DNA of 64,000 bases from an uncultured virus (IMG/VR IMGVR_UViG_3300037200_000039) (IMGVR_UViG_3300037200_000039); one strand, 5' to 3'; shown: positions 22,568 through 48,263, counted from the stretch's first letter. Notes: generated by a model from the letters alone, not told the origin. Translations and numbers: made by a program.

Positions 22568-22954
22568 GTGCCTCTTACCCCGAATATTGCTGTATCTATG
22601 AAGCACGAGAAGGATCCGTGTCTGCAAATCCTGGAAGAGATTGGTGATCTCAGTGGCTTTCAGATTCTGAATAATGAAGTGCTGATTGCCATCTATCGAC
22701 GGCCAGAAAAGACCCGCGGCGGGATTATCCTGACGCCAAACAATTTGAATGAGGATCTCTATCAATCCAAAGCTGGGCTGGTGGTGAAGATCGGCCCCAG
22801 TTGCGAGTTTCCGACCGTGCCGATTGCGCTCCACGACTGGGTTATCGTGCGGCCTTCAGACACCTATGCGCTGGAAGTGAACTTTGTGTCGTGCCGTCTG
22901 ACGCAAGACAAGTTTATTCGTGTCAAAGTAGCCACCCCGGGGATGGTATGGTGA
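22568..22954 (+). CDS. GroES/Cpn10-like co-chaperonin
   Basis: VLI...EKTRGGIILT...GLVVKIGP...DWVIV. Confidence 0.8.
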   Translation: MPLTPNIAVSMKHEKDPCLQILEEIGDLSGFQILNNEVLIAIYRRPEKTRGGIILTPNNLNEDLYQSKAGLVVKIGPSCEFPTVPIALHDWVIVRPSDTYALEVNFVSCRLTQDKFIRVKVATPGMVW

Positions 22955-28529: not shown

Positions 28530-28877
28530 ATGCGCCCTATCACGGTCACTGTAGGTCCGCTAGCAGCTGGCGGTACTAGCACACCCTGGGTTGCGCTAGA
28601 CCCGTGGGCGGTCGCGCAAGTGGCCATTCAATGCAATGTGGTTGGCACCGTGAATTACACAGTGCAGTCGACATTGGACGATCCCAACAGCCCGACCAAT
28701 CCAGTGTTGGCGTCAGCGGTCACTTGGGTAAATACGTCGGATACGGCAGCTGTTGGCGCTTCCGGTCCGATCCAGACGAACTTTGCCTATACGCCGCTTT
28801 ATGTTCGGTGTTTGCTCAATAGCGGTACGGGATCGGTGACGATGACGGTACTGCAGTCAAGCTCGGTGCCCTACTGA
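28530..28877 (+). CDS. Virion structural protein
   Basis: GTVNYTVQSTLDDP...RCLLNSGTGSV, beta-sandwich type. Confidence 0.75.
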   Translation: MRPITVTVGPLAAGGTSTPWVALDPWAVAQVAIQCNVVGTVNYTVQSTLDDPNSPTNPVLASAVTWVNTSDTAAVGASGPIQTNFAYTPLYVRCLLNSGTGSVTMTVLQSSSVPY

Positions 28878-29044: not shown

Positions 29045-29503
29045 ATGACACAAGCATTCAATAGTTTTGTGAGTGGATTGCCTGGTGCAACCACGTTGAC
29101 CGGCACTGAACTCATACCTTTGATTCAGGGAGGGGCATCCAGTCAATCAACGCCATCGGCACTCAAAACTTACTTGACAAGTGCTGTGTCTAGCGTCAGC
29201 GGAACTCCATCGGCCAATATCGATTATGGCGCGAGTCCCCCATCAGGCTATGTTGCTGGCGTCACCAATCGTCTGATATTGACGCCGAGCGCCAACCTAT
29301 CAGTGTTGGGGTTACTATCAGCACCTGACGGATGGGCAGTCTTAATAAAAAACGCCTCTGCCACTTATTCAATCACATTTCCGCATCACGGCGCGGGAAC
29401 ATCTACCAATCAGTTCGACAACGCGAGTGCAGCCTCAGTCGTGCTGCCGCCGCTCGGCGCCGCATTGGCAAACTACGTTGTCAATGAATGGACCTTCTCA
29501 TGA
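29045..29503 (+). CDS. Fibre adaptor protein
   Basis: N-terminal LPGATTLTGTE; C-terminal domain similar to the end of 42867..44039. Confidence 0.7.
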   Translation: MTQAFNSFVSGLPGATTLTGTELIPLIQGGASSQSTPSALKTYLTSAVSSVSGTPSANIDYGASPPSGYVAGVTNRLILTPSANLSVLGLLSAPDGWAVLIKNASATYSITFPHHGAGTSTNQFDNASAASVVLPPLGAALANYVVNEWTFS

Positions 29504-31596
29504 AATACTTCAGTTATCTTATTATTTCATTATTGTTTTCATACGCTTTATACGCCCAAGTCACGCCGGTCATACCATCGGGCACAGTGATGGGAAACAC
29601 CAGCGGTGCGGCAGCGGCTCCAAAGCCTGTTATTACAGGGACAGCTCTTGCCGTGTTTGACATATCTACCTATGGGGCGAAGTGCGACGGCGTCACAGAC
29701 GATGCTGCGGCATTTAACTCAGCATTTACTGCGATTCGCGCGGTAACGGCGCTTAGTGGTTCTGGTGCGCAGTACTTGGGACAGGCCGCCCACTTGGTCA
29801 CCCCAGCGCGCGTCTGTCTCATCAAATCGACAATCAACGCGACCGTTCTATATGGGGCCGGTTTCACCTGGGATGGTGAGGGCACTTTGATTTTGTGTCA
29901 GACCAATGGCACACCGTGTGTAGACGCAACTGGTGTTGAAAACGTCACCATTCGTAATTTGAATATTTATGGTTCTGCGACTTTGACCCCTAACATCGGA
30001 CTTGCCATCGGCCGCTATACCAGCACCAGTGGCAACTTAGCGGGTAATAATGTATTCGACGCGCCTAAAGTTATAGGGTATTTCACTAGTACTCCATTCT
30101 TCGATAATCAGGCTGAGACCACACATATCAATTCTGGTTGGTTTTTAACCATGTCTAACAACAATTGGGCAGCAGCAGTGTTTGATGGTGAGAACCATTT
30201 CAATTTTCAGACCATTGCTGCAGGCGGTCCTTACCCGCAAAATACTGCGCAGGGGTTTGCTGAGTCCACCTGTACAGATTGTGTATTCATGACCTTTGGC
30301 ACTGCATCGCCGGCGGTGTGGATCGGGGGAGCTTGGCGCCTACGGCTTGCCAATTCATATGTCGGGGTATGGGGTGGCACGGGTGGCAATGATGGTGTGA
30401 TTCTGTATACCCCTGGAAGCATCTCGAACCTGCTACTTGATGCGGATCTTCATTTTGAACTCAATCCCAGCCTTAATTCTGCATTTCGCTTCGCGGGCGC
30501 TGCTGCGATTACGCAGTTCGGATTGCACGTGCGTGATCATTCACCACAAGTTGCCGCGGGATCGTCATTCTTCGCGCGTGATACTGCTGGCACCTATGGG
30601 ACTGCCGTTAGCACGGTAGCAATCAACGACGCCAACATCGAATTAGGTGGCTTCGTCAACGGCGGCGCAACATTGTTCGATAACGCGGCACAGTTCACGG
30701 TTAATGGCTTAGTTAACATGCAGCCAGGAAATTGGACAGCACCAGCGAGTTTCTCTGGTAATCTGTGCCTTCCTGTATGCCAGAGTTATGCGCAGCCCGG
30801 CAACACGAGCAACATTGCCATCGGTCCATCGACCATGCAGGCTGCAGTTACGGGGAGCAGTAACCTAGCCATCATGCCTGGCGCACTCAGTGCATTAACC
30901 GGCGGACTGCAGAATGTAGCCATCGGCACCAACAGCCTTGGGGCTATAACGAGTGGCACAGGCAATACGGCGATCGGGTTTCTGGCGGGCGCTGCGGAGA
31001 CCGGCAGCTACAATACTGCCTACGGCTGGCAAGCACTATCAGCAACCGGTCTTACGGGAGCGACTAACGTAGCGCTTGGCGGTAATGCGCTCGAGGCGTG
31101 TACGGGTGTCTGTGCTAGCAACGTGGCGGTTGGCAGCAACGCATCAAATATTCTTACGACGGGTGCCAACAATCTCGTACTTGGGAACAGTGTTGGCACT
31201 AGCACTCTCACGACCGGAAGCAATAATATATTGCTCGGCAACTCCAATGCAGTCGATACCGTAACCTCTAGCAGTAGTAACGAGGTGAACATTGCAGGGC
31301 TGCTGTTTTATAACAATGCAGCTTTGGGCGCGCCCGCAGTATCTGCTTGTGGCACGTCACCTGCAATCGATGCGCGTGCCAACAACCGCTCAGGCACTGT
31401 GACCGTGGGTTCCGGTGCCGTAGCATCCTGCACCATCACTTTCGCAGGTTCCGGCTACGGCACTTGGAACCACTGTCGGGTAACGCCACACTCGACGGTT
31501 GCAGCGTTTGCCTATAGCTACACTAAGACGGTGTTGACCGTTACTGCCACTTCAGCCACATCTCTGATAATTGACTATGATTGCGATGGGTACTGA
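29500..31596 (+). CDS. Beta-helix spike/adhesin-like protein with a predicted signal peptide
   Basis: MKYFSYLIISLLFSYALYA-QV; YGAKCDGVTDD; NxAxG YadA-head-like repeats. Confidence 0.8.
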   Translation: MKYFSYLIISLLFSYALYAQVTPVIPSGTVMGNTSGAAAAPKPVITGTALAVFDISTYGAKCDGVTDDAAAFNSAFTAIRAVTALSGSGAQYLGQAAHLVTPARVCLIKSTINATVLYGAGFTWDGEGTLILCQTNGTPCVDATGVENVTIRNLNIYGSATLTPNIGLAIGRYTSTSGNLAGNNVFDAPKVIGYFTSTPFFDNQAETTHINSGWFLTMSNNNWAAAVFDGENHFNFQTIAAGGPYPQNTAQGFAESTCTDCVFMTFGTASPAVWIGGAWRLRLANSYVGVWGGTGGNDGVILYTPGSISNLLLDADLHFELNPSLNSAFRFAGAAAITQFGLHVRDHSPQVAAGSSFFARDTAGTYGTAVSTVAINDANIELGGFVNGGATLFDNAAQFTVNGLVNMQPGNWTAPASFSGNLCLPVCQSYAQPGNTSNIAIGPSTMQAAVTGSSNLAIMPGALSALTGGLQNVAIGTNSLGAITSGTGNTAIGFLAGAAETGSYNTAYGWQALSATGLTGATNVALGGNALEACTGVCASNVAVGSNASNILTTGANNLVLGNSVGTSTLTTGSNNILLGNSNAVDTVTSSSSNEVNIAGLLFYNNAALGAPAVSACGTSPAIDARANNRSGTVTVGSGAVASCTITFAGSGYGTWNHCRVTPHSTVAAFAYSYTKTVLTVTATSATSLIIDYDCDGY

Positions 31597-31598
31597 TA

Positions 31599-33317
31599 GT
31601 GTGGAAATATTTCATGTGGCTCTTACTTTCACCCTACGCGGGGCACTCGCAAGTATTGCCAGTCAACACCGCGAATAGCGTGATTGACGTGATGAACTAC
31701 GGTGCCAAGTGCGACGGGGTGACCAATGATTCCACTGCTGTCAATAACGCGATTGCTGCCATCAGGGCTCGTAGTGTGACAGCAGATTTTCGTAATGGAC
31801 CGCCAGGACATTTAGTTTTTCCAGCGACCGCTACGGGATGCAAGATTACTTCGACGATCAACGCAACTAGCGGATCTTCGGGCGGCACACTCTACGGTGC
31901 TGGGTTCGTATTCGATATGACTGGTGCCATGTTGATCTGTTCCACGAGTGGTACCCCATGCATTGATGCGACTGGCACAGGACAGGCTACGTGGCTCAAT
32001 CTCAACATCTATGGAACTTCTACCAATGCACCTAACATTGGGTTGGCATTAGGCCGAGTAACCAACAATTTTGTAGGCGCCGATGACAACAAGATATACA
32101 ACCCAACTATTGTTGGTACGTTCACGTTAGCACCATACTTTAACAATCAATCAGAAACTACCATTATTAGCGGAGCTAACTTTTATAACTACGCTGCCAA
32201 TGCGTATGGGGCGATCTGGGATGGTTCAAACCATTTCCACTTCCAGACGCTTGCAGTCGGGGGACCGTATCCGCAAAACGTGTATGAGTCGTTCAACGAA
32301 AATGTATGTATCTTATGCAATATAGGAGTGAGTGGCATCGGAGCCGTGTCAATTTGGATTGGTGGCACTTCACGTCATAGATTTATCAATCTATACAACT
32401 CAAACAATCCATCTGCGCCCACTACTCCCAGTCCATCGATAGTTCTATGGTATGGCAATAGTCTGACCAATGATTTGCTAGAACTAGATGCACACACAGA
32501 GAATGTCGGAGGCGTAGCTGCGGCGATGCCAAATGTTGTCATGTTCTCTGGCGCTGCGGCCATTGCTCAGAACAGTTTAGAAATCCGCGACGGATTCTCT
32601 GAACAATCTGGCGCATATTTTGCGCGCGACACAACGGCACGTTTTGGCACTACCCCGACATCCATTATCATCCGCCATGCAGATTTTAATATCATGCATC
32701 AAGCTAATGGAGGATCTGGAGCTACTTGGTTTGATACGCCTGCCGATTACGTTATCGATGGCAATATTTATGCTGGAGATAATACCTACAATTCTCCAGG
32801 AACATTCACCGGCAATCTCATCAATAACGGTGCTGCGAGTTCGTACATATCCACACTAGTTCCAGTGCAATCGGGCAATGCGATCACCATTCAGCCGCCT
32901 GGAGCCAGCTCCGGTAACTTGCAAGTTAATCTAGGTGCCCCATATGGCAGCACAGGGGCTGTATCGACAACGTATTTCAACGGCGCAGATGTGGCCAACT
33001 GGCAATTGGGTGCCAATACAGGAACCGCACCGCCATTCTTTTTATACGATGTTGCAAACGGTGCGAATGCCATCGTTGTGAATGCCAACAAAGGCACATT
33101 ACAGCTAGCGGCCGATGGCCGAGTATCTAGTTTCGGTGGCGTGACGACACTGGCGGTTTACACCGTGGCGACACTGCCCGCATGCAGCGGTGCAAATGGC
33201 AATGGCTTGGCGATTGTTAGTGACGCTACATCTCCCACCTACAACGCTGCGCTGACGGGGGGCGGGACTGTACGGGTGCCAGTATTTTGCAATGGCACTT
33301 CGTGGAGCGCCCATTGA
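31599..33317 (+). CDS. Paralogous beta-helix spike with a probable signal peptide
   Basis: GTG 31599 WKYFMWLLLSPYAGHS-QV; YGAKCDGVTND; C-terminal YTVATLPAC...DAT...VFCNGTSW. Confidence 0.78.
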   Translation: MWKYFMWLLLSPYAGHSQVLPVNTANSVIDVMNYGAKCDGVTNDSTAVNNAIAAIRARSVTADFRNGPPGHLVFPATATGCKITSTINATSGSSGGTLYGAGFVFDMTGAMLICSTSGTPCIDATGTGQATWLNLNIYGTSTNAPNIGLALGRVTNNFVGADDNKIYNPTIVGTFTLAPYFNNQSETTIISGANFYNYAANAYGAIWDGSNHFHFQTLAVGGPYPQNVYESFNENVCILCNIGVSGIGAVSIWIGGTSRHRFINLYNSNNPSAPTTPSPSIVLWYGNSLTNDLLELDAHTENVGGVAAAMPNVVMFSGAAAIAQNSLEIRDGFSEQSGAYFARDTTARFGTTPTSIIIRHADFNIMHQANGGSGATWFDTPADYVIDGNIYAGDNTYNSPGTFTGNLINNGAASSYISTLVPVQSGNAITIQPPGASSGNLQVNLGAPYGSTGAVSTTYFNGADVANWQLGANTGTAPPFFLYDVANGANAIVVNANKGTLQLAADGRVSSFGGVTTLAVYTVATLPACSGANGNGLAIVSDATSPTYNAALTGGGTVRVPVFCNGTSWSAH

Positions 33318-33779
33318 ATGAACTCCACCGACACGGGCGCCTACAACATCTGCATCAATCAGGGTGCGACGTTAACGCTGATGTTCATATGGACCACTGG
33401 TCAGTGCTGCGGCGCCGTTGGGACTACCGCTATGCCGGTAGATCTCACAGGCTATACCGCAGCATTGCAGATTCGCGCATATGCACTGGCGCCGACCATC
33501 CTATACGACGCGTCATCGAATCTCGTACTGGGCGGCATTGCAGGCACCATTACGCTCACCATTCCAGCGAGTGTAACTGCGACCTTTGGCTGGTGGCAGG
33601 GTGTCTATGATTTGTTGCTCATCAGTTCTAGCGGTGTCGTGACTAGGCTGTTAGCCGGCACAGTAACTGTGTCGGCACAGGTGACAATCAGTAACATAAT
33701 TGTAGTTACAGTCATTACCAACTCGAGTGGTGGAACGATTACCGATTCAAGCGGCAGCGCCATAACGTCTCTACCGTAG
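33318..33779 (+). CDS. Fibre/baseplate adaptor (Ig-like, BppU/LtfC-like)
   Basis: [10 protein letters not shown]...[13 protein letters not shown]...GTITLTI...GVYDL...VTRLLAGTV. Confidence 0.75.
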
Positions 33780-33790
33780 GGAATGAAGCA

Positions 33791-36406
33791 ATGAGTGAAG
33801 TCGGCAGTTACCCAAATGCAGCCCCACTAACGGGCACGGAACGCCTGCTAGGCGATCAATCCGCTGTTACCGTCAACATTACGCCTGCGCAGATCGCAAC
33901 CTATGTAGGGGCAACATCGGGTCCCACGGGTCCTACGGGACCGACTGGCATAGGAACTACAGGCCCCACGGGCGCTACGGGAACAACGGGAACCACCGGA
34001 GTTGGTGGCCCCACGGGCCCCACGGGCGCGAACGGAACCACCGGAGTTGGTGGCCCCACGGGCCCCACGGGCGCGAACGGAACTACTGGTGTTGGCGGAC
34101 CCACTGGGCCCACGGGTCCTTCCGGCACAGGCCCCACGGGCGCAGGCGCTACGGGCCCGACTGGTCCCACAGGCATAACTGGACCTACGGGCTTTGGTTC
34201 AGGTTCGCCCGGCCCCACGGGCCCCACGGGCGCCACGGGAACAACGGGAACTACCGGAGTTGGTGGCCCCACGGGTCCCACTGGAACAACGGGAACTACC
34301 GGTGTTGGCGGCCCTACGGGTCCCACGGGAACAACGGGAACTACCGGTGTTGGCGGCCCTACAGGCCCCACGGGCGCGAACGGAACTACCGGTGTTGGCG
34401 GCCCTACAGGCCCCACGGGCGCGAACGGAACTACCGGTGTTGGCGGCCCTACAGGCCCCACGGGCGCGATAGGAATCACAGGCCCCACAGGTGCAACCGG
34501 TGCAACCGGAACTACTCCGTCTATAGTGACGGCATCAGTATCTAGTCGGCCTCCTCTAGTCACTGACAACACGACCAAGGGATATACCACGGCGTCCGTA
34601 TGGCAATACCGAGGCAAGCTATACAACGCTGCTGTTTATTGCGCATCGGATTCAGCCGCGTGGGCGCAAGCCTACACAAGTGCAATCGGTACGCCGGTCG
34701 ATCTAATGGGAACTACCGTTACCAAGTTTGCAGGCGGCACGTGCGCGTTGCTCAAGGACTATACCGGCGCTGCTGTCGACGTAGCCGTTACGATCAGTTC
34801 CGTCTATCAGATCTATACCATCAATATACTGGCCAATGGCGAACTAGATAATGTTGCCTTGGGTGCCGTCATGGCAACCGCCGATGCCAACACGAACGCG
34901 CTCGTGCTCAGGGTATATGACCAGACTGGCAATGGAAATCATGCAGCGCTAGTGACAGCCACTGGGGTCCCTTGCGTTGTTAACGCGACAGTGACCAGCG
35001 GTACAACGTTCACTGTTAACAGTGTCACCAGCGGTACCGTAGCACTGGCTCAGCAGATTTTTGGCAATGGCATGCCAGCGCTCACTGGCAATACCAGTGC
35101 TCTCACACTAAGCAGCGGTAGTGGTCCCTACACACTCTCTGGGACTGCGGCTCTGAATCCTGGACCGGAGGCCATGTATTTAGGGGTGACCAGTCCACCA
35201 TATATTGATTGGGACCCAATACTGGGGCGTTACACGCTACAGGCGCCGAACGTCAACGTATCATCTGGTAGCACGACTAATCGCCGCTGTCTGCAATTGC
35301 CGCAGGCAATGACTCTGACCAGTACGCAGAATTACGGTATATATGCGGTCGGATCTGGCGTAGGGTCCGCCGATGGACAAGCACCAGTGTTGTGCGCGGT
35401 CGGCGATGCGACGGTATCTACCAACTATGAATCTATATTGGGGAGTATCGGCGGCGGCCCACCCGAGCCGCAAGTATTTGGCCAGCTAACGATAAACCGC
35501 ACCAGCGGATCAAACCGTATTGTGCCGACTTATATCACCACGCAGCCGTCGGTGCTACTAGCCTATACCGCGAGCACGCCGCTGACGACCATTAGCGTCA
35601 ATGAACAAACCGGTACCAGTTCGACTGCGATTCCATCTGCGGCTCTCGCGGGCGGTTATATCTTCTGCTATGGCGGCACGTCCCTTGATTGTTACTCGAT
35701 GATGCAACTAGTGGGACTGGCAATATTCAATGCGGCGCCCACAACCGCGCAAGCCAAGGCGCTGCGCTACGGAGCATATGCACGATTCAACATTCTGCCG
35801 CAGGTGACTAACACTCTTGCGATGATTGGCGATTCACGCTTTGCCAACCAAACGGTAACCCCGGGATTTGGTAGTTCTGTATTGCTGGCACGCTATCTTG
35901 GCAATAATTGGAACGTCTACAATTTAGGCACTTCGAATATCACCACTGCACAATGCGTCGGAGATGGCCTGGTACCGACAGTGACCGGCGTAGCGAAATC
36001 TCTATCAGTGCTAAAAGGTCCTGGTCTGAACTATGCAGTTATTCTGCTAGGGGTGAACGATTTCATCATCGGCTCATCAGCGGTCGCTACTGTTCTCGCG
36101 TCGCTGCAAACCTTATGCTCGCAAATATCCAATGTTGGGTTTACGCCGATTTTGATATCAGAACTTGCGACTTCGGTCACGACTGGTTCCGCTAATACCA
36201 ATGTACCGCTGCTGCATACCGCGATTCAGGCGCAGGGAACTTCTGGCATGGGTTGCGCAGCAATCATTGATCTGACTGGTTATACGCCGATCATGACTCC
36301 GTCTAGCAGCTCGTATTACTCTGGTGGCTTACATCCAAATGGAGCGTTGCATGAAATCATCAGCTCTTCTATAGCGTTACAGTTATCTGCATTGGGCGTT
36401 GCGTGA
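33791..36406 (+). CDS. Collagen-like fibre with a C-terminal SGNH/GDSL esterase-like domain
   Basis: About 200 aa of GPT/GTT repeats including 15-aa units; MIGDS, LLGVNDF, GLHPN. Confidence 0.85.
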
Positions 36407-36410
36407 TGCG

Positions 36411-39400
36411 ATGACGACCGTCAACGTCAGCCAGCCGGGGCCGATTCAAACGGTCACGGTAGCGACGCCTGGGCCGCAAGGTCCGACCGGCCCCATGGGC
36501 AATCCGGGGCCTACGGGAACTACTGGCCCTACCGGACCTGTAGCCATGGGGCCGACGGGAGCTACGGGACAATTCGGCGGTCCCACCGGGCCAACTGGCG
36601 GATCTGGCCCTACGGGTCCCAGCGGTACGGGTCCCACAGGCGCCACAGGAGGCGCAGGACCCACGGGCGGTGCTGGACCTACGGGTCCGAGTGGGACCGG
36701 ACCCACGGGTCCTACGGGCGCAGGACCCACGGGCGGTGCTGGACCTACGGGACCGAGCGGAACCGGACCCACGGGTCCTACGGGCGCAGGACCCACGGGC
36801 GCAACCGGGGCTGGCGGCCCCACCGGGCCGTCGGGCACTGGACCTACGGGGCCTACGGGCACAGGCGCCACGGGCCCCACAGGAACTACCGGCCCTCCAG
36901 GGGGACCCACGGGCGCAACCGGGGCTGGCGGCCCCACCGGGCCGTCGGGCACTGGACCTACGGGGCCATCAGTGACCGGACCCACGGGCGCCACAGGGCC
37001 GACGGGTCCTGGTGGCATTGGGACTACGGGTCCTACGGGCCCCACAGGAATCGGAGCGACCGGAGCTACCGGCCCCACAGGTATAACGGGCCCTACGGGA
37101 TTCGGTGCGGGTTCTGCTGGACCTACTGGACCTACGGGACTCACTGGATCTGGAGCCACCGGACCCACTGGTCCCACAGGCACCGGACCGACGGGGGCCG
37201 GCGCCACTGGTCCGACTGGACCATCTGGCGTCGGCCCTACCGGCCCTCCCGGAGTCGGCGCATTGGGACCGACGGGGCCTACGGGCTCAATAGGTCCTGG
37301 CGGCGATGACTCCAACCAGTTGTATGCGAGCACCTATCCCGGCATAGATCCGACCGGTACCACCGATAGTGCCGTGGCATTGCAGGCGGCAGTCACTGCT
37401 GCTGTTACTGCTGGCAGGGAACTGGTGATCGATTGCCCGATTCTCTGCGTGATTGGATTCGACTACACCAAGACAATTTTCCTGCCCTCCTACCTCTCCA
37501 TGAGGTTTACCAAGGCTGGAATGTTCATCACACAAGCCACGGGACCCAAGTTTCTGTGTTTCGTCGGTACCAATATTTGCATCGATGGCATGAATCTCGT
37601 TTACAACGCGGCCGTGTGGCCGCTGGCGATTTATGCGGCGGGAGGTATTTTGACAGGCACGCTCACTACGGCAGGGAGCGGCTATGTCAACGGCACCTAT
37701 AACAACGTGCCATTAACCGGCGGCCATGGCTTCACCGCATTCGCGAATATCGTGATTACTGGCAATGCCGTGCAATCGGTCACCATTGGCACTGGCTTGG
37801 GCTCAAACTTCCAAGTCAACGATGTATTGTCGGCCTCTGCGACCTATTTAGGCGGCGGTTCGCCCACTGCGTTTAGCTATACGGTCAATAGCGTTTCAGC
37901 GACGCCGGCATTCCAGACAGCAGAAACCAACTGTGTATATACCACGCTAAATAATTACCTTCAGACTCTCTACAACACATCGGGCGGGATCAATGGAGTC
38001 AATTTCGCTGGTGGCAGTGCGGGCCCGTGGGGCAATAGCACAACCAACGAATGCGCGATCATTGATTTTCGCGGCGGCTTTACCACCAATGTTTCCTTTA
38101 CCGGTCATACCATTATTCAAGTACCCAATGGAGCACCAGCCTGCAATTTTCCGCCAACGATATTCAATAATGCGAACGAATGGAATCCCGGCTCGACCGC
38201 GGTTACCAATGGGGCCATCGTTACTTCGACGCTCACCAGCGGGGGCTCTGGCTATACCCCTGGCACCCATAACTATGTAGTGCTAACTGGAGCTGGCACT
38301 GCGGGTACCGTCAAAGCAACACTCGTAGTCAATACCAGCGGTGTAATATCGTCGTACACTATCTACAGCGCCGGTACTGGAATATCTGCTGGCAATGTAC
38401 TCACCTACAGCGGTTCTGGCGGCAGCGGGCTCCAAATCACAGTCAACACGGTTGGATATACTCCGCCGAGTTGCTCTCAGGGCCCCTCGAATATTACCTT
38501 TGAAAATCTGACGGTGGACGGTTATTGCATGGGCAGCGTCGGGGTGGTTGGTGGGACCACGGGTCTAAGCATCGAGAACTTGAAGACGCTGCGCTACAGC
38601 GATGCGCAGAATTCCATTACGAATGATCCGCAAGGCTTACAGGTCGGCAGTTGCGGTACCTGGTTCGCTCCACCACATTTCTTTTATGGTACGACTTCTT
38701 CCAATCCGAACTTTTTTGGAAAGGTCTGTATTGACGCATGGTATGACGCAGGACTGTATACCGGATTGCCCACTCGTCGCTCAACTGCTAGCGGTCTGAT
38801 GCAGCGATGCAAGTTCACTGCGAGCAACGGCTCGTACGTCAACATGATATCGGCATGCCCTGATGGAGCAATGCAGATGCTAACCAGCAGCCTTCCAGAC
38901 TGTAAGGTAGACGTCAAATGTACGGCCCCTTCAACTACCAATATGTGCACCAATCCTGGCTATCAAACTGGAACGACGGTGGCCGTGTCATTTCCTGGTG
39001 CAGATCCGCTCAACGAAGTATTTTTCAAGGCAAAGATCATTGACCCAGCGCCAGTGCCGGCGGGCTTCCCGTTCGGCAGCGACGGCACCGCGAATCATGT
39101 GGGGCTGTTTTTAGATTTAGAAGTAGCAGTGCAAGACTGGCCGAATGCTGCGTACTCAGTGACGTCTCCATCAGGATTTACAGCCGTCAGCACCTATAAT
39201 ACGGCCTACCCGGGTATTGGATTGGCTGGCGTAAACAACATCCTACGCATGAAAATAGCGTTTGCTGCCTGTACCAGCACCACCACATTCAGAGGTTGTT
39301 TGGACAATGCGGGTGCGACCATTGCGCAAAGCACCGTTTACGATATCGACGTGGCCGGTTGGAGGCAGTTCACCGGCGCGAATGCCGCATCCTATAAGCA

Positions 39401-40049
39401 GCATATTGTTATCGGCAATAGCACGGTCGGTGTAACCGTAAAGATGCTCGATACCTCAAACAATATGCTGATGGTAGTGGAGGATGGCTTAGTAACGGAG
39501 CGCTGGACGCAAGGATCTATCGTGGCACCGCCGGCCGGTTCCACTTTTACGGTTAGCCCAATTAATTACCCAACGGTCTACGCAATCGATCGCTGGGCGT
39601 GGGTGACATGGACCAATACCATTGGCGGTCCTACTTCCATGAATTTAGGGTGGAGCACCTCACCCACTGCTATTGCCTCGGGGCTGCCAGTGGGCGCGAA
39701 TTCTGCTGCGCAAATACCAGGATTCAGCCCGATTCCAGTGGCCGGTACCGGTATCCCGATACTCACGACGGTTGGCGGTAATTTCAGCGTGCAACTTACC
39801 GGCACTGCGACCGGGGGCACTATGACGACCTTGGTCGACACTAGCCAGAGTTGGACCTCGAACCAATGGCATGACTATGGGCTTTACAATATCACCCAGG
39901 GCTGGACGGTGATTATCGCGTCAAGTACCAGCAATACGCTGACCCTAAAGTACGCGGCTCCTACATCGGCTACCTCTGGTGATTCGTATGTAATTACAGC
40001 AGCGGGTCTTTTATCGCTTAGCGGCATTTGCACCTATGGAATCATCTAA
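36411..40049 (+). CDS. Long collagen-like fibre with a spike-like body
   Basis: About 290 aa of GPT repeats, then [17 protein letters not shown] (spike neck) and GSGY..GTY..V.LTG repeats. Confidence 0.85.
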
Positions 40050-40408
40050 TGAATGAATGGACTGAAATGTGGGAACTGGTCAAAGGCAAGCATCGTAAGC
40101 GCGAGCATCAGGAGATCTACATCTATGCCGGTCCGGTAGTAGACGAGACAGGTACGGTGACTCATGCGACAAAAACACAATTCACGATTCACTGCGCGCG
40201 GTATGTGCTCGAGCAGCTTGATCCGAATGAGGGATGGGAAATACTGCATGTCGGGGGCCACTACCCGCCGGACGAATGGGTGGGCAAGCCTAGTCACCAC
40301 ATCAACCGCACTATGCAGCGCGTGCCCAAGCATCCCGGCTTGACCTTCGTCGCAGGCGCTACCATACCGCCGGACCACAAGGAGTTAGTTAGAGGGGATA
40401 CCAAATGA
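40049..40408 (+). CDS. Hypothetical protein
   Basis: Coupled between the fibre gene and the glycosyltransferase. Confidence 0.6.
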   Translation: MNEWTEMWELVKGKHRKREHQEIYIYAGPVVDETGTVTHATKTQFTIHCARYVLEQLDPNEGWEILHVGGHYPPDEWVGKPSHHINRTMQRVPKHPGLTFVAGATIPPDHKELVRGDTK

Positions 40409-41460
40409 AGATCGCCATTTCATCTATCTCGAAAGACGAATCGCTGCACGTTGCTAGATTTTGCGAATCGGCGAAAGATGCTGATTTGATATCCGTATGC
40501 GACACTGGATCTACTGATAACACCGTAGAACTATTGCATGAGTATGACGTTGTCGTACATCACATAAATGTAACTCCATGGCGCTTTGATGACGCCAGAA
40601 ATGCGGCTCTTGCATTGCTTCCAACCGATGTCGACGTAGTAGTGAGTTTAGATCTAGATGAAATTCTTCAGCCAGGTTGGAGAGAGGAAATCGAACGGAT
40701 ATGGGTTCCTGGAACAACACGCATGAGATATGGTTTTGATTGGGGATGTGGAATCGTATTCCAATACGAGAAAATATTTGCTCGTAAAGGCTATAGGTTT
40801 CACCACCCCCTACACGAGTACCCCGTGGCGGATCGCATTCAAGAAGTCTGGGCAAATACCGATAAATTGCTGGTAATCCATCAGCCAGATCCTAATAAGT
40901 CTCGCGGCCAGTATTTGGATATCCTGCGGATATCGGTTGAAGAAGATCCATTCTGTCCGCGCAATGCATTCTACTACGCACGCGAATTATCGTTTCATCA
41001 GCGGTGGCAAGATGCCATTGATCAGGCGCGACGCTATCTCGCGTTACCGCGTGCGACATGGCCTAGCGAGCGCTGTTATGCGACGCGCGTCATTGGACGT
41101 TGCTACCAGGAATTGGGCGACTACACCAGCGCCTTGTCGTGGCTGCGCACCTCGGCTAGCGAAGCGCCAGAGACGCGCGAACCGTGGTACGAACTGGCGC
41201 TTGCCTGTTATCGCACGCAACGCTGGCCCGAATCATTGGGTGCGGCGCTAACGTGTCTCACTATTGCTAACCGTGAAAAGCTCTATACGGTGGACCCAGA
41301 AGTATGGGGCTGGGCGCCGCATGATCTCGCGTCTATTGCTGCCTATAACTTAGGATTATGGCAACTCGCCTTGGAACACGCCAAGCTTGCGGTGGCTCTC
41401 GCACCGGATGATTTACGACTGCGCCAAAATTTGGCGTTCTGCGAGGCAAAAGTCGCATGA
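40405..41460 (+). CDS. GT2 glycosyltransferase with C-terminal TPR repeats
   Basis: ISKDE, CDTGSTDNT, RFDDARNAAL, SLDLDE, LHE, then TPR-like helices (FYYAREL, REPWYELA). Confidence 0.92.
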   Translation: MKIAISSISKDESLHVARFCESAKDADLISVCDTGSTDNTVELLHEYDVVVHHINVTPWRFDDARNAALALLPTDVDVVVSLDLDEILQPGWREEIERIWVPGTTRMRYGFDWGCGIVFQYEKIFARKGYRFHHPLHEYPVADRIQEVWANTDKLLVIHQPDPNKSRGQYLDILRISVEEDPFCPRNAFYYARELSFHQRWQDAIDQARRYLALPRATWPSERCYATRVIGRCYQELGDYTSALSWLRTSASEAPETREPWYELALACYRTQRWPESLGAALTCLTIANREKLYTVDPEVWGWAPHDLASIAAYNLGLWQLALEHAKLAVALAPDDLRLRQNLAFCEAKVA

Positions 41461-42158
41461 GTACGCCAGCCGCCAATGTGACCAATACCTCAGGTACGTA
41501 TAACTTTGCTCCTTCTCTTGGTGAGACGGTTCTATATAGTTTTGGATTATGCGGAGTGCGTGCAACGGCCCTCACGCAATCGCACTTCGAGACCGCGCGC
41601 ATGGCGGCGAATCTCATGATGTCGGCATGGTCCGCGCGTGGGGTTAATTTGTGGCAGGTAGATTCTCAACAGATCACATTGCAGCAGGGATGCAGCACCT
41701 ATCAGGTTCCATCGAATACGATTGTGATGCTGGATATGTACATCACGCATACGACCGGTATCGATCGAGTCGTCATGCCGATTAGCCGTACCGAGTACGC
41801 GAATTTTCCCAATAAGCAGCAGCAGGGTTTCCCCAACTGTGCTTGGTTTGATCGATTGCTATCACCCACTGTGACGCTCTGGCCGGTGCCTGACAGTACT
41901 GTCAAGTGCCTCCACTATTATCGTCTGCGCCAGTCTCAGGATTCTATATTGGGCAATGGCGCGTCAATCGAAATCCCAACGTATTTCTGGGATGCATTCG
42001 CGCTCGGCCTGGCGTGGCGCTTGGCGCTCACTTGGGCGCCGGCACAGGCGCCAATGCTCAAGCCATTAGCCGATGAAGCGTACAACTTCGCAGCGACGCA
42101 GAATGTAGAGAGTTCAAATTATTACCTTGCGCCAATGATCGGCGGGTATTTTCGGTAA
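41457..42158 (+). CDS. Head-tail connector/tail tubular-type protein
   Basis: TSGTYNF, W.ARGVNLW, ISRTEY...PNK.QQG.P, LWPVPD, GLAWRLA. Confidence 0.7.
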   Translation: MSTPAANVTNTSGTYNFAPSLGETVLYSFGLCGVRATALTQSHFETARMAANLMMSAWSARGVNLWQVDSQQITLQQGCSTYQVPSNTIVMLDMYITHTTGIDRVVMPISRTEYANFPNKQQQGFPNCAWFDRLLSPTVTLWPVPDSTVKCLHYYRLRQSQDSILGNGASIEIPTYFWDAFALGLAWRLALTWAPAQAPMLKPLADEAYNFAATQNVESSNYYLAPMIGGYFR

Positions 42159-42877
42159 TGGCATACGCATCCCTCCAAGGTCGGGCTAATCCAAACAGAG
42201 GCGCAGCAGCGATCTGTGATCGGTGCGGATTCGTGTTTTCCCACGTTGACCTAAAATCGCAGAGTGAATGGCGCGGCCCGGTGCTGCAAAACATTCAACT
42301 GCTGGTGTGCAGTACTTGCATGGATATTCCGCAGGAGAACTTGCGCTCGATTGCCGTACCGGCCGATCCGCGCCCGATACTCAACGCGCGCGTGCAAGAT
42401 TTCGCGGTCGCCGAAACAGACTATCGCGCCCTGACGCCGTCGACCGTCACTGATTTTGTGACCGGACTGCCACGACCAGCGGCGACGCTGCGCGTAACTC
42501 AGGATTGCAGCAATCGGACTTCCACTGGCTACAGTCAGCCGCTAGGGCTTGAGCAACCAGCGATCATGCCGCAACAACTCCTAAACGATGTTCCGACAGC
42601 CTATGGCATTGTGCTCCCAGTGCTCTCAGTGAGCGCGCTCGGGACTATCGTGACGGTGACCTGTTCCGCTGTTCACAATCTGCAACCGGGCTATCAAGTA
42701 TCAGTGCTTGGATTGACCGCTGGCAATGGGTTCTACAGCGTCGAAGTACCCACCGCGACGATGTTTACGTATCAGACGATTGTGCCAGTAGCGCCTTCGC
42801 TGACCTCGCAAACAAGGATCGTCACAGCGAATGTGGGACTGCCATTGGGCGCAACGGAGTTGCAGAGTGGCTACTAA
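42158..42877 (+). CDS. Conserved structural protein with N-terminal CDRCG...CxxC
   Basis: AICDRCGF...[11 protein letters not shown]...DPRP..NAR; C-terminal beta domain. Confidence 0.72.
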
Positions 42878-44039
42878 GGAGATCCCGCAACTTCCGGCGC
42901 TGATTGCGCTAACTGGCAGCGAACTGATTGAAGTCGTTCCGGTAGGGCCTACGGGCGTACCTGGGGCATCATCGCGCGCTACATTGAGGCAGGCTGCCGC
43001 CTTGGGCGGACCAGCTGGACCGACGGGTCCCACGGGCGCATCTGGTGGGCCGACGGGTCCCACCGGCCCCAGCGGTACGGGTCCGACTGGCGCCACAGGT
43101 GCAGGCGCAATGGGCGCTACAGGTCCCACGGGCCCTGGCGGCTCCGGTCCTACCGGGCCATCTGGCGCAGGCGCCACGGGCCCCACTGGTCCTAGCGGCA
43201 TTGGCCCGACGGGTGCCACGGGTTCCTCCGGCACCGGGCCCACTGGGCCGACTGGTATTGGCGCAATGGGTCCCCCGGGTCCGACCGGGCCCCAAGGCGT
43301 TGGCTTCTTTGGGCCGACTGGACCCACTGGTGCGGGTGCCACAGGAACTACCGGAGGTACAGGATCGGCGGGTCCCACAGGCGCCACAGGAGGCGCAGGC
43401 GCGATGGGCGCTACAGGTCCCACGGGCCCTACCGGCGCAACAGGACCTAGTGGCACTGCGGGCACCCCCGGCGGCCCCACGGGCCCTACGGGTACTGCCG
43501 GCCCTACGGGTCCTGGTGGCAGCGGGCCCACAGGACCATCGGTAACTGGACCTACCGGCACCGGCGCCACAGGTCCTACGGGTCCGAGTGGGACCGGTCC
43601 CACGGGTCCTACGGGCGCTACCGGAATAGGATCGGCGGGCCCGACTGGACCTACGGGCGTCGGTTCAGGTTCGCCAGGCCCCACAGGACCCACCGGGTCC
43701 CCTGGCAGCGGAGGCAGTGGGATTACCGGCGTTGCTACCGATACACCATCAGGCACACAGAACAATTACACGGTTGCTGGTGCGATGGGTTCGACGATTA
43801 CTTTTATTGATCTAACTCCATCGGGAGCCTGCAATATCACCGGATTGATAGCCGGCTTCGATGGTCAGTTTGTGACCATCACGAATTTGAGTGCAACTAT
43901 TTCGCTGACGCTGGATGCACTCAATGCAGGATCAACCTCGACCAATCAATTTCGCTTAGTTGGCAATTTAGCGCTTGGCCAATACAACAGCGCATCCTTT
44001 CGGTACTCCGCCACTATTGGCCACTGGATATCCGTATGA
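42867..44039 (+). CDS. Collagen-like fibre adaptor
   Basis: GTG 42867 [18 protein letters not shown]; about 230 aa of GPT repeats; C-terminal domain paralogous to 29045. Confidence 0.82.
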
Positions 44040-45472
44040 AATATCTACTAGCACTAATCCTAGTGACCCTGCCGCTCACGGCAAGTGCTCAGGCGCCGGT
44101 ATATAACTACTTCTCTCCAGGGTGTGCGTTATCTGGCACCGCGTCGCAACAAACGGTCAATTTGAATACCGGCGGATGCATTGTTGGTAATCTGTCGGTG
44201 ACCAACCTCAACGGCGGCACGGCAGCATCCGCGTCGACCTACTTTAGCGGTGCGGGTACTTGGACCACGCCGCCCGGTGCGCCAGGCGGCGCCAATCAAC
44301 AAGTACAAGTGAACAATTCAGGCGTATTCGCCGGATATCCTAATTTCACGTGGACCTCGAGCAACAATTCGCTGTACGTGGGTTATTCAACGAGTTCAAC
44401 CAACGGCAGTTTGGTAATAGGAGGGACCGGAACCGGGGTAGGCACGGTCCGCGGCGGCGCAGAACTGGATCTAAGCGGTAATCCGCTAATTCTCTATACC
44501 ACGGGCGGCGGCGCCCTCAACATCGCGGGCTCTGCTGGGACTGGCGCAAGTACAGGAACCTCGATCTCGATGACCGCAGGTAATACCGGATCAACCTCAT
44601 CATCGCCCGGAGGTGCCGTGACCATTACGGGGGGAGTGGGCAATGCCAGCGCTGCCAGTGGACAGATATCTCTCGTTGGCGGATCTGGCTATTCGACCAC
44701 GGGGACCGCCGGCAATGTATCCCTGCAAGGCGGTTTGGGAAACACGTTGAGCAAATCTGGTCAGGTGAATATATTGACCAACAATACCACCAGAATGACC
44801 ATCCCAAATACAGGAGGATTGTCTATCAGTTCGCCAGCGAGCGGGGCAGCGCTGACTGTCAATGCAGCTAGTGGTACCCCAGCCGCTAATATAGTGGGGA
44901 CTGCTGGCAGCATATTTTCATCGCAAGCACTACAAGTAACTTCTCCCAACACAGTTGGCCAAAGCAACGGCATGCGGATCGTCGCGGGTACCAATTATGG
45001 GGATTCACAGTTAATGCTGACGAACGCAGCAGGTACGATTAATGATTGGATATTCTTGGGCGACGGCGGATTGGTATCATCCGGCCAAAGCGACAAAGGC
45101 GCCGGTACAGTCAACGCGCAGGCGCTGTATGTGAATGGGTTATCTGTGAATCCGAACGCTTCTTGGGCAATGTCCACTGGTGCAAGCGGGACATCGCCTT
45201 CGCTGAATTATTGTCTTCATTGCGGATCAACGGCTATCGTTCGTAGTAGTACCGGGCTATACATGATCACTCATAACGATGGACTCAATGGTTCTGGATC
45301 TGGGGGTTCGCTTGTTTGTGGATTATCTCAACTAGGTGTGGGATCGTCCCCTGCATTAGTGGCTGGAAGCGCCTTTAGCAGCACCACAGCGTACGTATCG
45401 GTATATTCTGTGTCGTCGGGGATTCTTGCCGATATACAGGGCGTAACAGTTGCTTGTATCCATACTAACTAA
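44036..45472 (+). CDS. Gly/Ser/Thr-rich fibre protein with a predicted signal peptide
   Basis: [40 protein letters not shown] repeats; [16 protein letters not shown]. Confidence 0.8.
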
Positions 45473-45483
45473 GCAGATCGCAT

Positions 45484-45963
45484 ATGACCCCCAACCTCAG
45501 CGCCTTTCTAGCGATGATCCGCTTCGCAGAAGGGACCAGTACCTATCCTGACCCCTATGCCGTGACCTTTGGTGGCAAGTTCACTATTACTGATTTCTCG
45601 AACCACCCGTACTGCGCTCTGCAATGGCATGGCGAGCCGCTGGATTTCTTAGGATCGGATTACGTGGGCAAGATCTCCACTGCGGCAGGTGCCTATCAGA
45701 TCACGGCGCCGACGTGGCGCGTCTTGAGGCGCCTATGGTCATTGCCAGATTTCTCGCCAGCATCACAGGACGCAGCAACGGTAGAACTCATTCGCGCGAA
45801 ACGCGGCGCACTCGACTGTATCGAATATGGAAACCCGGAGGCCGCGATTTTTGCATGTAGTGGCATCTGGGCAAGCTTCCCTGGGTCAACCTCGCGACAA
45901 CCACAACGAGAACTCACTTCTTTGATTGAATCGTACACCAACGGCGGAGGCACGCTCGCATGA
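45484..45963 (+). CDS. Endolysin, lambda R-like lytic transglycosylase
   Basis: AFLAMIRFAEGT, STAAGAYQI, DFSPASQD, WASFPG. Confidence 0.9.
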   Translation: MTPNLSAFLAMIRFAEGTSTYPDPYAVTFGGKFTITDFSNHPYCALQWHGEPLDFLGSDYVGKISTAAGAYQITAPTWRVLRRLWSLPDFSPASQDAATVELIRAKRGALDCIEYGNPEAAIFACSGIWASFPGSTSRQPQRELTSLIESYTNGGGTLA

Positions 45964-46118: not shown

Positions 46119-46321
46119 CAGCGTCAGAGTTGGCTCAAATAATCACGTCGATAGCGACACTGATAGGCGTGATTGTGAGCGCAGTCGTATCATTGCGTAA
46201 TGGCATAAAGATTGATGCCGTCCACAAGTCGACAAACGGACTCGCGGAGCGCAACGAGGCAATTGCACGCAAGCTCGGGGTAGAGGAAGGTAAGGCAACA
46301 GCGAAGGCGAATCCGACATGA
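46115..46321 (+). CDS. Single-TM lysis-cassette protein (holin/antiholin-like)
   Basis: MTASELAQIITSIATLIGVIVSAVVSL...IDAVHKSTNG. Confidence 0.65.
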   Translation: MTASELAQIITSIATLIGVIVSAVVSLRNGIKIDAVHKSTNGLAERNEAIARKLGVEEGKATAKANPT

Positions 46322-46632
46322 ATATCACCGTTATCACACCGTCAATCGGCATAGCGCCAGCGATTCCCTGGTATCAAAGCCCGCAACTTATCGGACTCAT
46401 TACCACGATAGTTTCAGCAGCCATAGCGATATATGGCCCAAAGCTGAATATCTCCTCCACCGACATAACGACCGTCGTCACCGATATATTCGGTGTAATT
46501 GCGCTGATTGCGCCAATTATTGGCACTGTGCTTAGGATTAAATCTACCGTGCAGCCGGTCACTCTCACGCAAGCTGCCGCCGACGTACACCCCAATACTA
46601 TTGCATCAGGGATCACACAACATGTACCGTAA
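46318..46632 (+). CDS. Two-TM holin-like protein
   Basis: PWYQS motif followed by two hydrophobic segments. Confidence 0.65.
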   Translation: MNITVITPSIGIAPAIPWYQSPQLIGLITTIVSAAIAIYGPKLNISSTDITTVVTDIFGVIALIAPIIGTVLRIKSTVQPVTLTQAAADVHPNTIASGITQHVP

Positions 46633-47474: not shown

Positions 47475-48263
47475 TTGTCGACGCCTGCGACCACGCCTCT
47501 CTCGTACAACGGCTACATCCAGCAAATAGGTGTGATGGCGGTCGTCGTGACTCAGGACGTCGCTGGCGTCTGGCAAGGGGTAGATCCGGCCTTCAATTCC
47601 ATCGTTCCGCAGATGCTCAATTATTCTGAGGCCAGAATCCAGCGCGACCTGGATTTCCTTCAGTCGCAAACCTCGAACACGTATACGCTGATCCCAGGCA
47701 ATCCAGTATTCTCCATTCCGATTGACGATTTCCTTACGATCCAGACGCTGGAGGTAACGCAGACTGCCGGCAGCACCCTAGTCAATACGACGCCGTTGCT
47801 GCCGGTTTCGAAGGAATTCATCCAGAACTGTTACAGCGGCGTTGCCAGTGCAGGCACCCCGCAATACTTCGCGCCAGTCGGCGATAGTTTCGGCAACGGC
47901 GGTGATATCAGCAACAACATCCTGCTAGGACCGGTGCCAAACTACTCCTATACCCTGCGGGTATTCGGGACCATTCGCATGCCATCGCTCGCCAAGTATG
48001 CGACGGCTGGACCGGCGGATACGTCATATACGTACATTTCTGAGTGGCTTCCCGATATGTTGGTAATGGCTAGCATGATCTACATATCAGCGTTTCAACG
48101 CAATTTCTCAGCAACCTCCGATGATACTCAGATGTCTATGTCCTACGAGAAGCAGTATCAGGCACTACGTCTCGGAGCGATTGCCGAAGAGAACCGCCGC
48201 AAGGGTCAAGCTAGCGGATGGAGCGGATATTCTACGCCGACTGCGGCAACCCCGACGCGCTAG
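47475..48263 (+). CDS. Head-tail adaptor/tail tubular protein A-like
   Basis: YSEARIQRDL, GTPQYFA, LGPVP, TYISEWLPDML, YEKQYQ. Confidence 0.72.
   Translation: MSTPATTPLSYNGYIQQIGVMAVVVTQDVAGVWQGVDPAFNSIVPQMLNYSEARIQRDLDFLQSQTSNTYTLIPGNPVFSIPIDDFLTIQTLEVTQTAGSTLVNTTPLLPVSKEFIQNCYSGVASAGTPQYFAPVGDSFGNGGDISNNILLGPVPNYSYTLRVFGTIRMPSLAKYATAGPADTSYTYISEWLPDMLVMASMIYISAFQRNFSATSDDTQMSMSYEKQYQALRLGAIAEENRRKGQASGWSGYSTPTAATPTR

Follow-up and report, generated by a model that had tools for sequence, protein, structure and literature searches.

In the late operon of an uncultured podovirus-like phage, a spike-like and a fibre-like gene begin with Sec-type leaders, and each starts on the stop codon of a short gene that lacks such a leader. 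The phage is represented by a stretch of 64,000 nucleotides (IMG/VR IMGVR_UViG_3300037200_000039), called the window below, from whose genes the phage type was deduced; genes are named by their first nucleotide. The two leader-bearing genes are 29500 and 44036, and their upstream partners, which we call stubs, are 29045 and 42867. Leaders are conserved throughout the family of 44036, and the coupled pair of stub and leader-bearing fibre gene, which is new in this analysis, recurs in podovirus-type and in myovirus-type contigs. We give an even chance to the reading that the products of 29500 and 44036 are distal modules in virion appendages of two parts, in which the stub would be mounted in the cytoplasm and the distal module exported, cleaved, oxidised and joined to it at lysis. 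A third gene, 31599, may belong to the same class.

The earlier note on this DNA had assigned Sec signal peptides to all three genes, and the N-termini that it quoted are present in the sequence exactly so. For 29500 and 44036 the assignment stood, and for 31599 it became doubtful. Throughout, leaders were called by crude home-made rules (an n-h-c scan and a stricter rule) and not by a trained predictor. In the crude scan of 54 open reading frames (ORFs) of the window, Lys2 followed immediately by a strong hydrophobic stretch and a small-x-small site occurred only in 29500 and 44036. The stricter rule was passed by four of 55 entries, namely these two genes, a weak case at 28530 and a weak case due to an over-long start at 42831; among window ORFs other than the three genes studied, 2/52 passed. 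The predicted cleavage sites in the window are LYA/Q, GHS/Q and ASA/Q. Features of twin-arginine translocation (Tat), lipoprotein or signal-arrest-release (SAR) signals were absent from the three leaders (no RR, no L-x-x-C lipobox), and an A-x-A type site was present.

In both 29500 and 44036 the ATG overlaps the TGA of the upstream gene (ATGA; genes ending at 29503 and 44039), which favours these starts and implies coupled translation. Public gene calls begin further downstream. P0050 (469 aa) starts 44036 at a GTG, codon 10, inside the leader, and P0224 starts 31599 at ATG 31614. Such calls, together with the failure of 31599 under the leader rule, would fit an artefact in which the wrong start codons were chosen and the true proteins begin downstream of the hydrophobic stretch. 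We regard this as highly improbable, since the frame is open and hydrophobic upstream in every relative, with a basic start and an A-x-A box, and since the ATG or GTG overlapping the upstream stop is conserved. The position of the public starts, within or downstream of the leader, indicates that automatic annotation can hide such leaders; pipelines that trim them conceal the feature, as happened with 44036 and 31599.

Read from GTG 31599, the N-terminus of the third gene is MWKYFMWLLLSPYAGHS followed by QV, with its basic residue at Lys3 (Lys2 in 29500 and 44036). It failed the stricter rule from this start as well as from TTG 31581, and it resembles the leader of its paralogue 29500 in a shortened form (KYF...S/QV and KYF...A/QV). 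The earlier note had already named it the weakest of the three, in agreement with its failure under the rule and with the downstream public start. Export and cleavage of the 31599 product are, in our estimate, somewhat less likely than not.

The comparison with homologues that the earlier note had suggested as a check came out in favour of retained signal peptides: all relatives of 44036 that were inspected keep the leader, as do 17/22 beta-helix relatives of 29500 and 31599. The database search with 44036 gave 30 matches, of which 13 were fetched, one being the window's own protein. The remaining relatives (12/12; among them P0052, an N-terminally cut gene call) show a basic start and a hydrophobic run, with an A-x-A-type site abutting the conserved block that contains C(I/V).GNL, and the 44036-type fibre has a leader at 9/9 loci in viral contigs (L010-L018). 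When 1.84 billion cluster representatives were searched with a profile of the mature block, there were 10784 matches at E<=1e-3, mostly to a generic fibre repeat and some in leaderless proteins with fibre-anchor N-termini. Among the best 150 of these matches, 32 begin at profile position 1-3, with the block at residue 9-39 in 32/32, and the 26 new representatives of those 32 all have a leader. A fused or leaderless form of the block was not seen among these best 150 of 10784, deeper matches being to the generic repeat only.

Fifty of 51 unique N-termini could be parsed to a cleavage site; the remaining one, P0056, has a leader and misses the motif pattern. Position -1 is A in 44, G in 4 and S in 2, position -3 is A in 38, L in 5, T in 3, G in 3 and S in 1, and Gln occupies +1 in 33. 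The n-region carries a net charge of +1 to +4 in 21/22 rows of the 44036 family, the exception being a truncated call, and the h-regions span 11-22 residues with a mean Kyte-Doolittle value of 1.6-2.7. Leader length (16-38 residues) and sequence drift freely, with conservation setting in precisely at +1. The block has two cysteines that never occur singly (both in 43, neither in 6 and one in 0 of 49 unique blocks), the pattern to be expected if they form a disulfide. For Sec export and for cleavage by signal peptidase I, a protein needs a hydrophobic N-terminus with a basic start and an A-x-A box at a fixed distance. It is as these features only that the leaders are kept, which makes export and cleavage of the 29500 and 44036 products very likely. 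The view of the earlier note that such leaders are genuine export signals is thus strongly supported by family comparison for these two genes, the leader of 31599 standing apart.

In the fibre body of 44036 we found the repeat GNL.V.NLNGGT.AS..(Y/F)..G.GTW, which also occurs in leaderless phage fibres; its matches include a fibre of MW202524.1. No Pfam or PHROG family matched 44036, no PDB entry matched its family by sequence, and an ESM Atlas search with 44036 returned scores that were all below 0.9, to be taken as leads only. In the form GNLPVTNLN.GT.AS..TFWRGDGTW, the fibre repeat characterises 144 best representatives (P0080-P0223), 76 of which have leader-like N-termini by the home-made rule. 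Many of these leader-like proteins lie in contigs binned to bacterial metagenome-assembled genomes (MAGs) of several phyla (L019-L061). A 697-aa protein in a Pseudomonadota MAG contig (L045:7785-9875) combines in one chain the leader MKRLLALLFLALVTPAYA followed by QQ, the fibre repeat and a stretch resembling the connector domain described below (E 1.5e-9). A scan of genome contigs with the 44036 family found the generic fibre repeat only, and neither a close relative nor a host.

Genes 29500 and 31599 share a domain of ~400 residues that starts with YGAKCDG. With a profile of this domain, right-handed beta-helix glycanases of solved structure were matched at their N-terminal cap (5m5z, E 3e-7; 7chu, E 1e-5). 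PF12708 stayed below threshold on 31599 (18.8 bits, cut-off 27) and was absent on 29500; PF12708 or PF13229 appears in the precomputed annotation of several homologues, and the repeat region of 29500 matches phrog_6002 and phrog_4636 ('tail spike'). We propose that 29500 would be a glycan-active beta-helix enzyme with adhesin-like repeats and 44036 a Gly/Ser/Thr-rich fibre. Two of the relatives that did not pass the leader rule are P0005, which has a hydrophobic run and AGA/Q with a neutral n-region as called, and P0006, which is truncated. P0007, P0008 and L009 are leaderless, so that the beta-helix family has both leader-bearing and leaderless versions.

Three phage types have leader-bearing beta-helix genes in their structural modules. 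In L002 the gene is part of the head module, with a gene matching Pfam Gp77 'fiber-tail adaptor' (PF23148, 39.6 bits) upstream. In L004 the order is portal, scaffold, capsid, leader gene, phrog_4492 fibre and head-closure Hc3, and in L005 it is baseplate wedge, phrog_587 protein, tail fibre, a 271-aa protein and the leader gene. The 271-aa protein matches N-terminal parts only of tailspike PHROGs; thus an adaptor (L002) or an N-terminal piece of a tailspike (L005) precedes the leader-bearing gene, a third kind of virion anchor beside the podovirus-type and myovirus-type ones of the CTD stubs described below. The leaderless L009 gene stands directly before a tail-sheath gene. Leader genes hence occupy slots in which leaderless homologues sit as fibre or spike.

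The stubs are united by a C-terminal connector domain (CTD) of ~80 residues, which is common to 29045, 42867 and the upstream genes in L010-L018. In BLASTP the two window stubs match each other over the CTD (E 8e-8), with the anchor motif aligned, and 42867 matches the L013 stub with E 2e-15. The frame of 42867 extends upstream to 42831, but relatives begin where GTG 42867 lies, so the start at 42831 is probably wrong. The nearest atlas clusters of 29045 are proteins of 140-150 aa that are 82-100% viral. No Pfam or PHROG family matched the CTD, and its profile, run over the window, L010-L018 and other relatives' loci, found nothing further except, weakly, two MAG proteins. The N-termini in front of the CTD are of three types: a short podovirus-type anchor motif alone (29045), this motif with a collagen-like run (42867, L010-12), and a 130-residue N-terminal part of phrog_12796, a family of myovirus fibres (L013), there beside a full leaderless sister fibre. 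By their sequence make-up the stubs appear to be anchors without a distal part.

Searching viral contigs for the CTD returned 15 loci. In 14 of them the CTD ends the protein, and a leader-bearing ORF starts 1-45 nt before or at the stop; new mature N-termini found in this way are VYHYFPPPG, VYNYFAPGG, TAFPLFQP and TFQYFNPAAG. A search of metagenome contigs with a narrower CTD alignment gave 16 loci, 13 with strong terminal matches and three with weak or internal ones, and in 11/13 of the former a leader ORF follows. After removal of records repeating a contig or sequence, 26 distinct stubs with a terminal CTD remained, and in 24 of these the start of a leader-bearing ORF overlaps or abuts the stop. 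The surroundings of the 44036 family are of two kinds. Type A (L010-L012) is syntenic with the window. In type B (L013-L018) a baseplate hub and wedge subunits (phrog_120, phrog_6) are accompanied by phrog_587, a 383-aa leaderless tail fibre (phrog_12796), a 242-aa protein, the leader-bearing fibre and lysis genes. Lipoprotein-like starts occur among the products of the type B lysis genes and suggest that the hosts are diderm.

With the pairs in hand, a conventional assembly may be considered in which the hydrophobic N-terminus is a docking or trimerisation helix that plugs into the stub connector, or in which fast folding or binding retains the protein in the cytoplasm. Indeed, the partners of all CTD stubs, including 29500, have only the leader and the coupled start in common, and both the beta-helix and the fibre repeats also occur in proteins without a leader. 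However, a docking helix would need neither a basic n-region nor an A-x-A box at a fixed distance, and a small residue (A, G or S) occupies -1 in 50/50 parsed N-termini, with A at -3 in 38. Moreover, the leaders drift in length and sequence up to the residue at which conservation starts, and the cysteine pair co-varies as in a disulfide. This alternative is quite unlikely in our judgement.

We return to the two-part appendage. Export, cleavage, disulfide formation, docking and the timing of docking are steps that we infer from sequence. The distal gene would be translated by termination-reinitiation directly after its leaderless stub (29045 or 42867). The stub would be mounted on the particle in the cytoplasm by its virion-anchor N-terminus, and the distal module would pass through Sec by means of its signal peptide, be cut by signal peptidase I before Gln, fold and form disulfides in the periplasm. 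Only after holin and endolysin have opened one compartment to the other, or in the lysate, would it meet stub-bearing particles. Docking onto the stub connector would probably use the newly exposed N-terminus, which in the 44036 family reads Q-x-Y/F-x-Y/F-F-x-P. Complete fibres without a leader are likewise encoded in the window and in the type B phages; the exported modules may therefore play an auxiliary part, and incomplete occupancy may then be tolerable.

Several observations weigh against this assembly. A particle-binding domain is absent from the mature leader proteins, the aromatic motif seen at the mature N-terminus in the 44036 family is missing from that of 29500, and leaderless beta-helix relatives exist (P0007, P0008, L009). 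With the CTD profile, no CTD stub was found upstream of the beta-helix relatives in L002-L008. The chain in L102 continues beyond the CTD into another domain of 110 residues. In L121 and L122 (1501-1791 each), where the stub CTD ends in two extra residues, EF, the stub is followed by an SU10-adaptor-like gene, and neither a leader-bearing fibre nor lysis genes lie between. These partnerless stubs and the extra domain of L102 suggest that the CTD may be a working tip by itself. In the window, SU10-type adaptor genes bracket stub 42867, fibre 44036 and the lysis block; as the stub abuts the second adaptor in L121 and L122, fibre and lysis block behave as an insertable cassette. Cysteine richness had to be discarded as a sign of export, the leaderless fibres of the window being equally Cys-rich. 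A tblastn search of 50,697 phage records with 29500, 44036 and P0061 found no homologue in a cultured phage, returning partial matches to repeats at most. Finally, we know of no joining mechanism or timing, and the time from membrane permeabilisation to dilution of the lysate is short.

Some of the same facts would suit exported proteins that never join the virion and act on the envelope of the infected cell or in the lysate; the earlier note, too, had named the envelope as a possible target. They could be receptor-destroying or receptor-masking enzymes, or adhesins that keep progeny off debris, block superinfection or help escape through capsule or extracellular polysaccharide (EPS), and the stubs would then be complete short fibres in their own right. 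Consistent with such roles, only 17-45 residues precede the beta-helix (~40 in 29500 and ~17 in 31599, counted from the predicted cleavage site to YGAKCDG) and contain no N-terminal particle-binding domain, 44036 and its relatives adjoin lysis genes, and 2/26 stubs have no partner. Furthermore, 76/144 fibre-repeat proteins look exported by rule, many of them in bacterial MAG contigs, and known analogues are WceF (PMC7949094) and gp40 of PBR31 (PMC10975493). On the other side, the start-stop overlap with a stub that lacks a distal module is kept in 24/26 cases and in two tail types, unlike in morons, and the genes stand in the slot of leaderless fibre or spike homologues, as beside the sheath gene in L009. 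No promoter or terminator signal sets the leader genes apart. Evidence from a cultured phage comes from Cellulophaga phage phi18:3 (Pachyviridae, NC_021794.1), whose gp085, gp086 and gp087 all begin with MK, a hydrophobic run and S or A before Q. The record, in which the leaders are not mentioned, labels them structural or tail proteins 'based on experimental MS/MS proteomics', so that leader-bearing proteins were, according to the record, detected in virion preparations. On balance, a role outside the virion appears unlikely to us, though it is by no means far-fetched.

The compartment-split assembly put forward in the earlier note thus gains indirectly from the coupled stub and leader pair in two tail types and from the phi18:3 precedent, and the two partnerless stubs among 26 do not fit it. 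More tentatively, many uncultured tailed phages of diderm hosts may build part of their host-recognition apparatus across the inner membrane, timed by lysis and docked by a connector.

Other candidates were examined and set aside. The quoted cysteine motifs of the earlier note are present in the sequences, and the Cys counts are even (14 in 29500, 8 in 31599 and 6 in 44036). The C-terminal tip of 29500 contains 4 Cys and ends YDCDGY, and that of 31599 reads LPAC...VFCNG..W.AH. A tip domain shared by 29500 and 44036 was rejected, as profile comparison gave a probability of 1.3% and BLAST found nothing. Moron genes of the Lom, Bor, Llp or Cor type were likewise rejected, because the genes have no promoter or terminator signal of their own, their starts overlap upstream stops and their products measure 478-698 aa. 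Promoter- and terminator-like sites were not in excess (12 and 11, where shuffled sequence gave means of 16.9 and 14.7), and none of them lies beside the genes.

If the two-part reading is true, tailed-phage morphogenesis would include an obligatory periplasmic maturation step timed by lysis. Routine export of receptor-binding modules would make fibre folding dependent on host Sec, signal peptidase and Dsb, envelope biochemistry could set host range, and recombinant production of such fibres and depolymerases would need periplasmic expression. With just two proteins, a single docking domain and a single N-terminal motif, the stub and leader pair is a small system that lends itself to testing. 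Should the proteins act outside the virion, they would form a widespread class of phage-exported envelope enzymes and adhesins made from tail-fibre parts, which is likewise not known to have been described.

Table 1. Positions of the leader-bearing genes, their stubs and other annotated features in the window.
Feature	Position	Strand	Description
Stub of 29500	29045..29503	+	152 aa, leaderless; fibre-anchor-like N-terminal motif LPGATTLTGTELIPLIQGG; CTD about 29216-29500
Gene 29500	29500..31596	+	698 aa; leader, 40-residue linker, YGAKCDG beta-helix domain, NxAxG-type repeats, tip
Leader of 29500	29500..29556	+	MKYFSYLIISLLFSYALYA; predicted cleavage before Gln20 (QV follows)
Gene 31599	31599..33317	+	572 aa from GTG 31599; alternative starts TTG 31581, ATG 31614; paralogue of the 29500 beta-helix
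Stub of 44036	42867..44039	+	anchor motif, collagen-like G-x-y run, CTD 43752-44036
Gene 44036	44036..45472	+	478 aa; leader, conserved mature block, Gly/Ser/Thr-rich fibre body, 4-Cys tip
Leader of 44036	44036..44089	+	predicted cleavage before Gln19
Conserved mature block of 44036	about 44096-44386	+	contains GGCIVGNL
Endolysin	45484..45963	+	phrog_90, E 6e-32; directly downstream of 44036
Membrane protein	46318..46632	+	104 aa with hydrophobic segments; homologues at same place in L010, L011; putatively holin-like from its position
153-aa protein	33318..33779	+	phrog_1084, E 1.6e-22; no leader; weaker matches to 'L-shaped tail fiber protein assembly'
Primase-helicase	14891		Pfam/PHROG searches
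Large terminase	17077		phrog_38
SU10-type portal	18962		Pfam/PHROG searches
Major capsid protein	26379		Pfam/PHROG searches
SU10-type adaptor paralogue	41457-42158	+	34.5 bits
SU10-type adaptor paralogue	47475-48263	+	49 bits
Structural protein	48267		phrog_3287; Pfam/PHROG searches
Ejection-type protein	57187		Pfam/PHROG searches
Fibre-like genes (among many)	33791, 36399, 42831, 50757		Pfam/PHROG searches

Long ORFs of the window lie nearly all on the + strand from ~10.5 kb onward, and no tRNA genes were found in it. Its proteins are also encoded on a public contig of 70,038 bp, and the portal region matches one uncultured record, MW202675.1, at 68%. Start codons in high-GC loci were picked by eye from the reading frames. 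The same operon contains a leaderless collagen-like fibre (33791-36406, +; PF01391, 51 bits) whose C-terminus resembles a GDSL/SGNH esterase domain (30.7 bits, below the cut-off of 32.9). A further beta-helix protein (12864-14246, +) is encoded outside the late operon, directly upstream of the primase-helicase gene; it matches PF12708 (46.9 bits), PF13229 (34.9 bits) and tail-spike PHROGs, and its N-terminus is mildly hydrophobic without a basic residue. Amid the fibre cluster, a gene at 40405-41460 (+) joins a family 2 glycosyltransferase (GT2) to tetratricopeptide repeats (TPR; phrog_13126, E 3e-95) and is conserved in L010 (3322-4377). Another gene (4769-6157, -) combines glycosyltransferase and sulfotransferase domains (PF17784, 113 bits). 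These phage glycosyltransferases may modify the phage's own fibres or host surface glycans. Between portal and head genes, a protein at 22568-22954 (+) matches GroES/Cpn10 weakly (E 1.5e-4; 22.1 bits, cut-off 21.1); the phi18:3 record likewise annotates two GroES-like genes, a likeness that may be coincidence.

Canonical tailed-phage morphogenesis is wholly cytoplasmic, and its tailspikes and fibres carry no signal peptide. One-chain tailspikes of the P22 gp9 type resemble the window genes in having a glycan-active beta-helix body or fibre repeats and a late-operon position. In contrast, their particle-binding domain is the N-terminus of the one chain, whereas the window has a separate anchor gene and a distal gene with a Sec leader. 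Multi-part appendages are represented by the long fibre of T4 (gp34-37) and by the K1-5/G7C adaptors. Adaptor systems (PF23148, 'Podophage GP4 fiber-tail adaptor protein gp77') resemble the proposed pairs in that the distal receptor-binding protein has a gene of its own and is held by a piece bound to the virion; all their parts are cytoplasmic and leaderless, however, and the CTD of the window stubs matched no Pfam or PHROG family.

Lom and Bor of lambda, Llp of T5 and Cor are exported phage accessory proteins. Like the genes studied here, such proteins have signal peptides and are encoded among tail or lysis genes, and they act in the envelope. Unlike them, they are small lipoproteins, outer membrane proteins or lysis enzymes and not fibre- or spike-like proteins of 478-698 aa, and no anchor stub is coupled to them. 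Related cases are Cor-type lipoproteins in phage structural clusters (PMC4936722), exported Sec or SAR endolysins (PMC7143992) and gp40 of Xanthomonas phage PBR31, an SGNH esterase with a signal peptide encoded beside lysis genes. WceF of Pantoea stewartii and AmsF of Erwinia are trimeric glycanases of the beta-helix tailspike fold with a cleavable export signal, thought to act in periplasm or biofilm; in contrast to the window proteins their signal is Tat and not Sec, their genes lie in a chromosomal EPS cluster, and phage context and stub partner are absent.

A description of Sec leaders on tail fibres or tailspikes was not found in the literature searched, and a term search in the crassvirus structural atlas found no mention of signal peptides (PMC10172136). 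Phage phi18:3 differs from the window in that no CTD stub lies upstream and its host belongs to the Bacteroidota; a sequence relation to the window proteins was neither seen nor tested for. It is alike in that three consecutive large leader-bearing proteins are encoded upstream of the endolysin, in a cultured podovirus.

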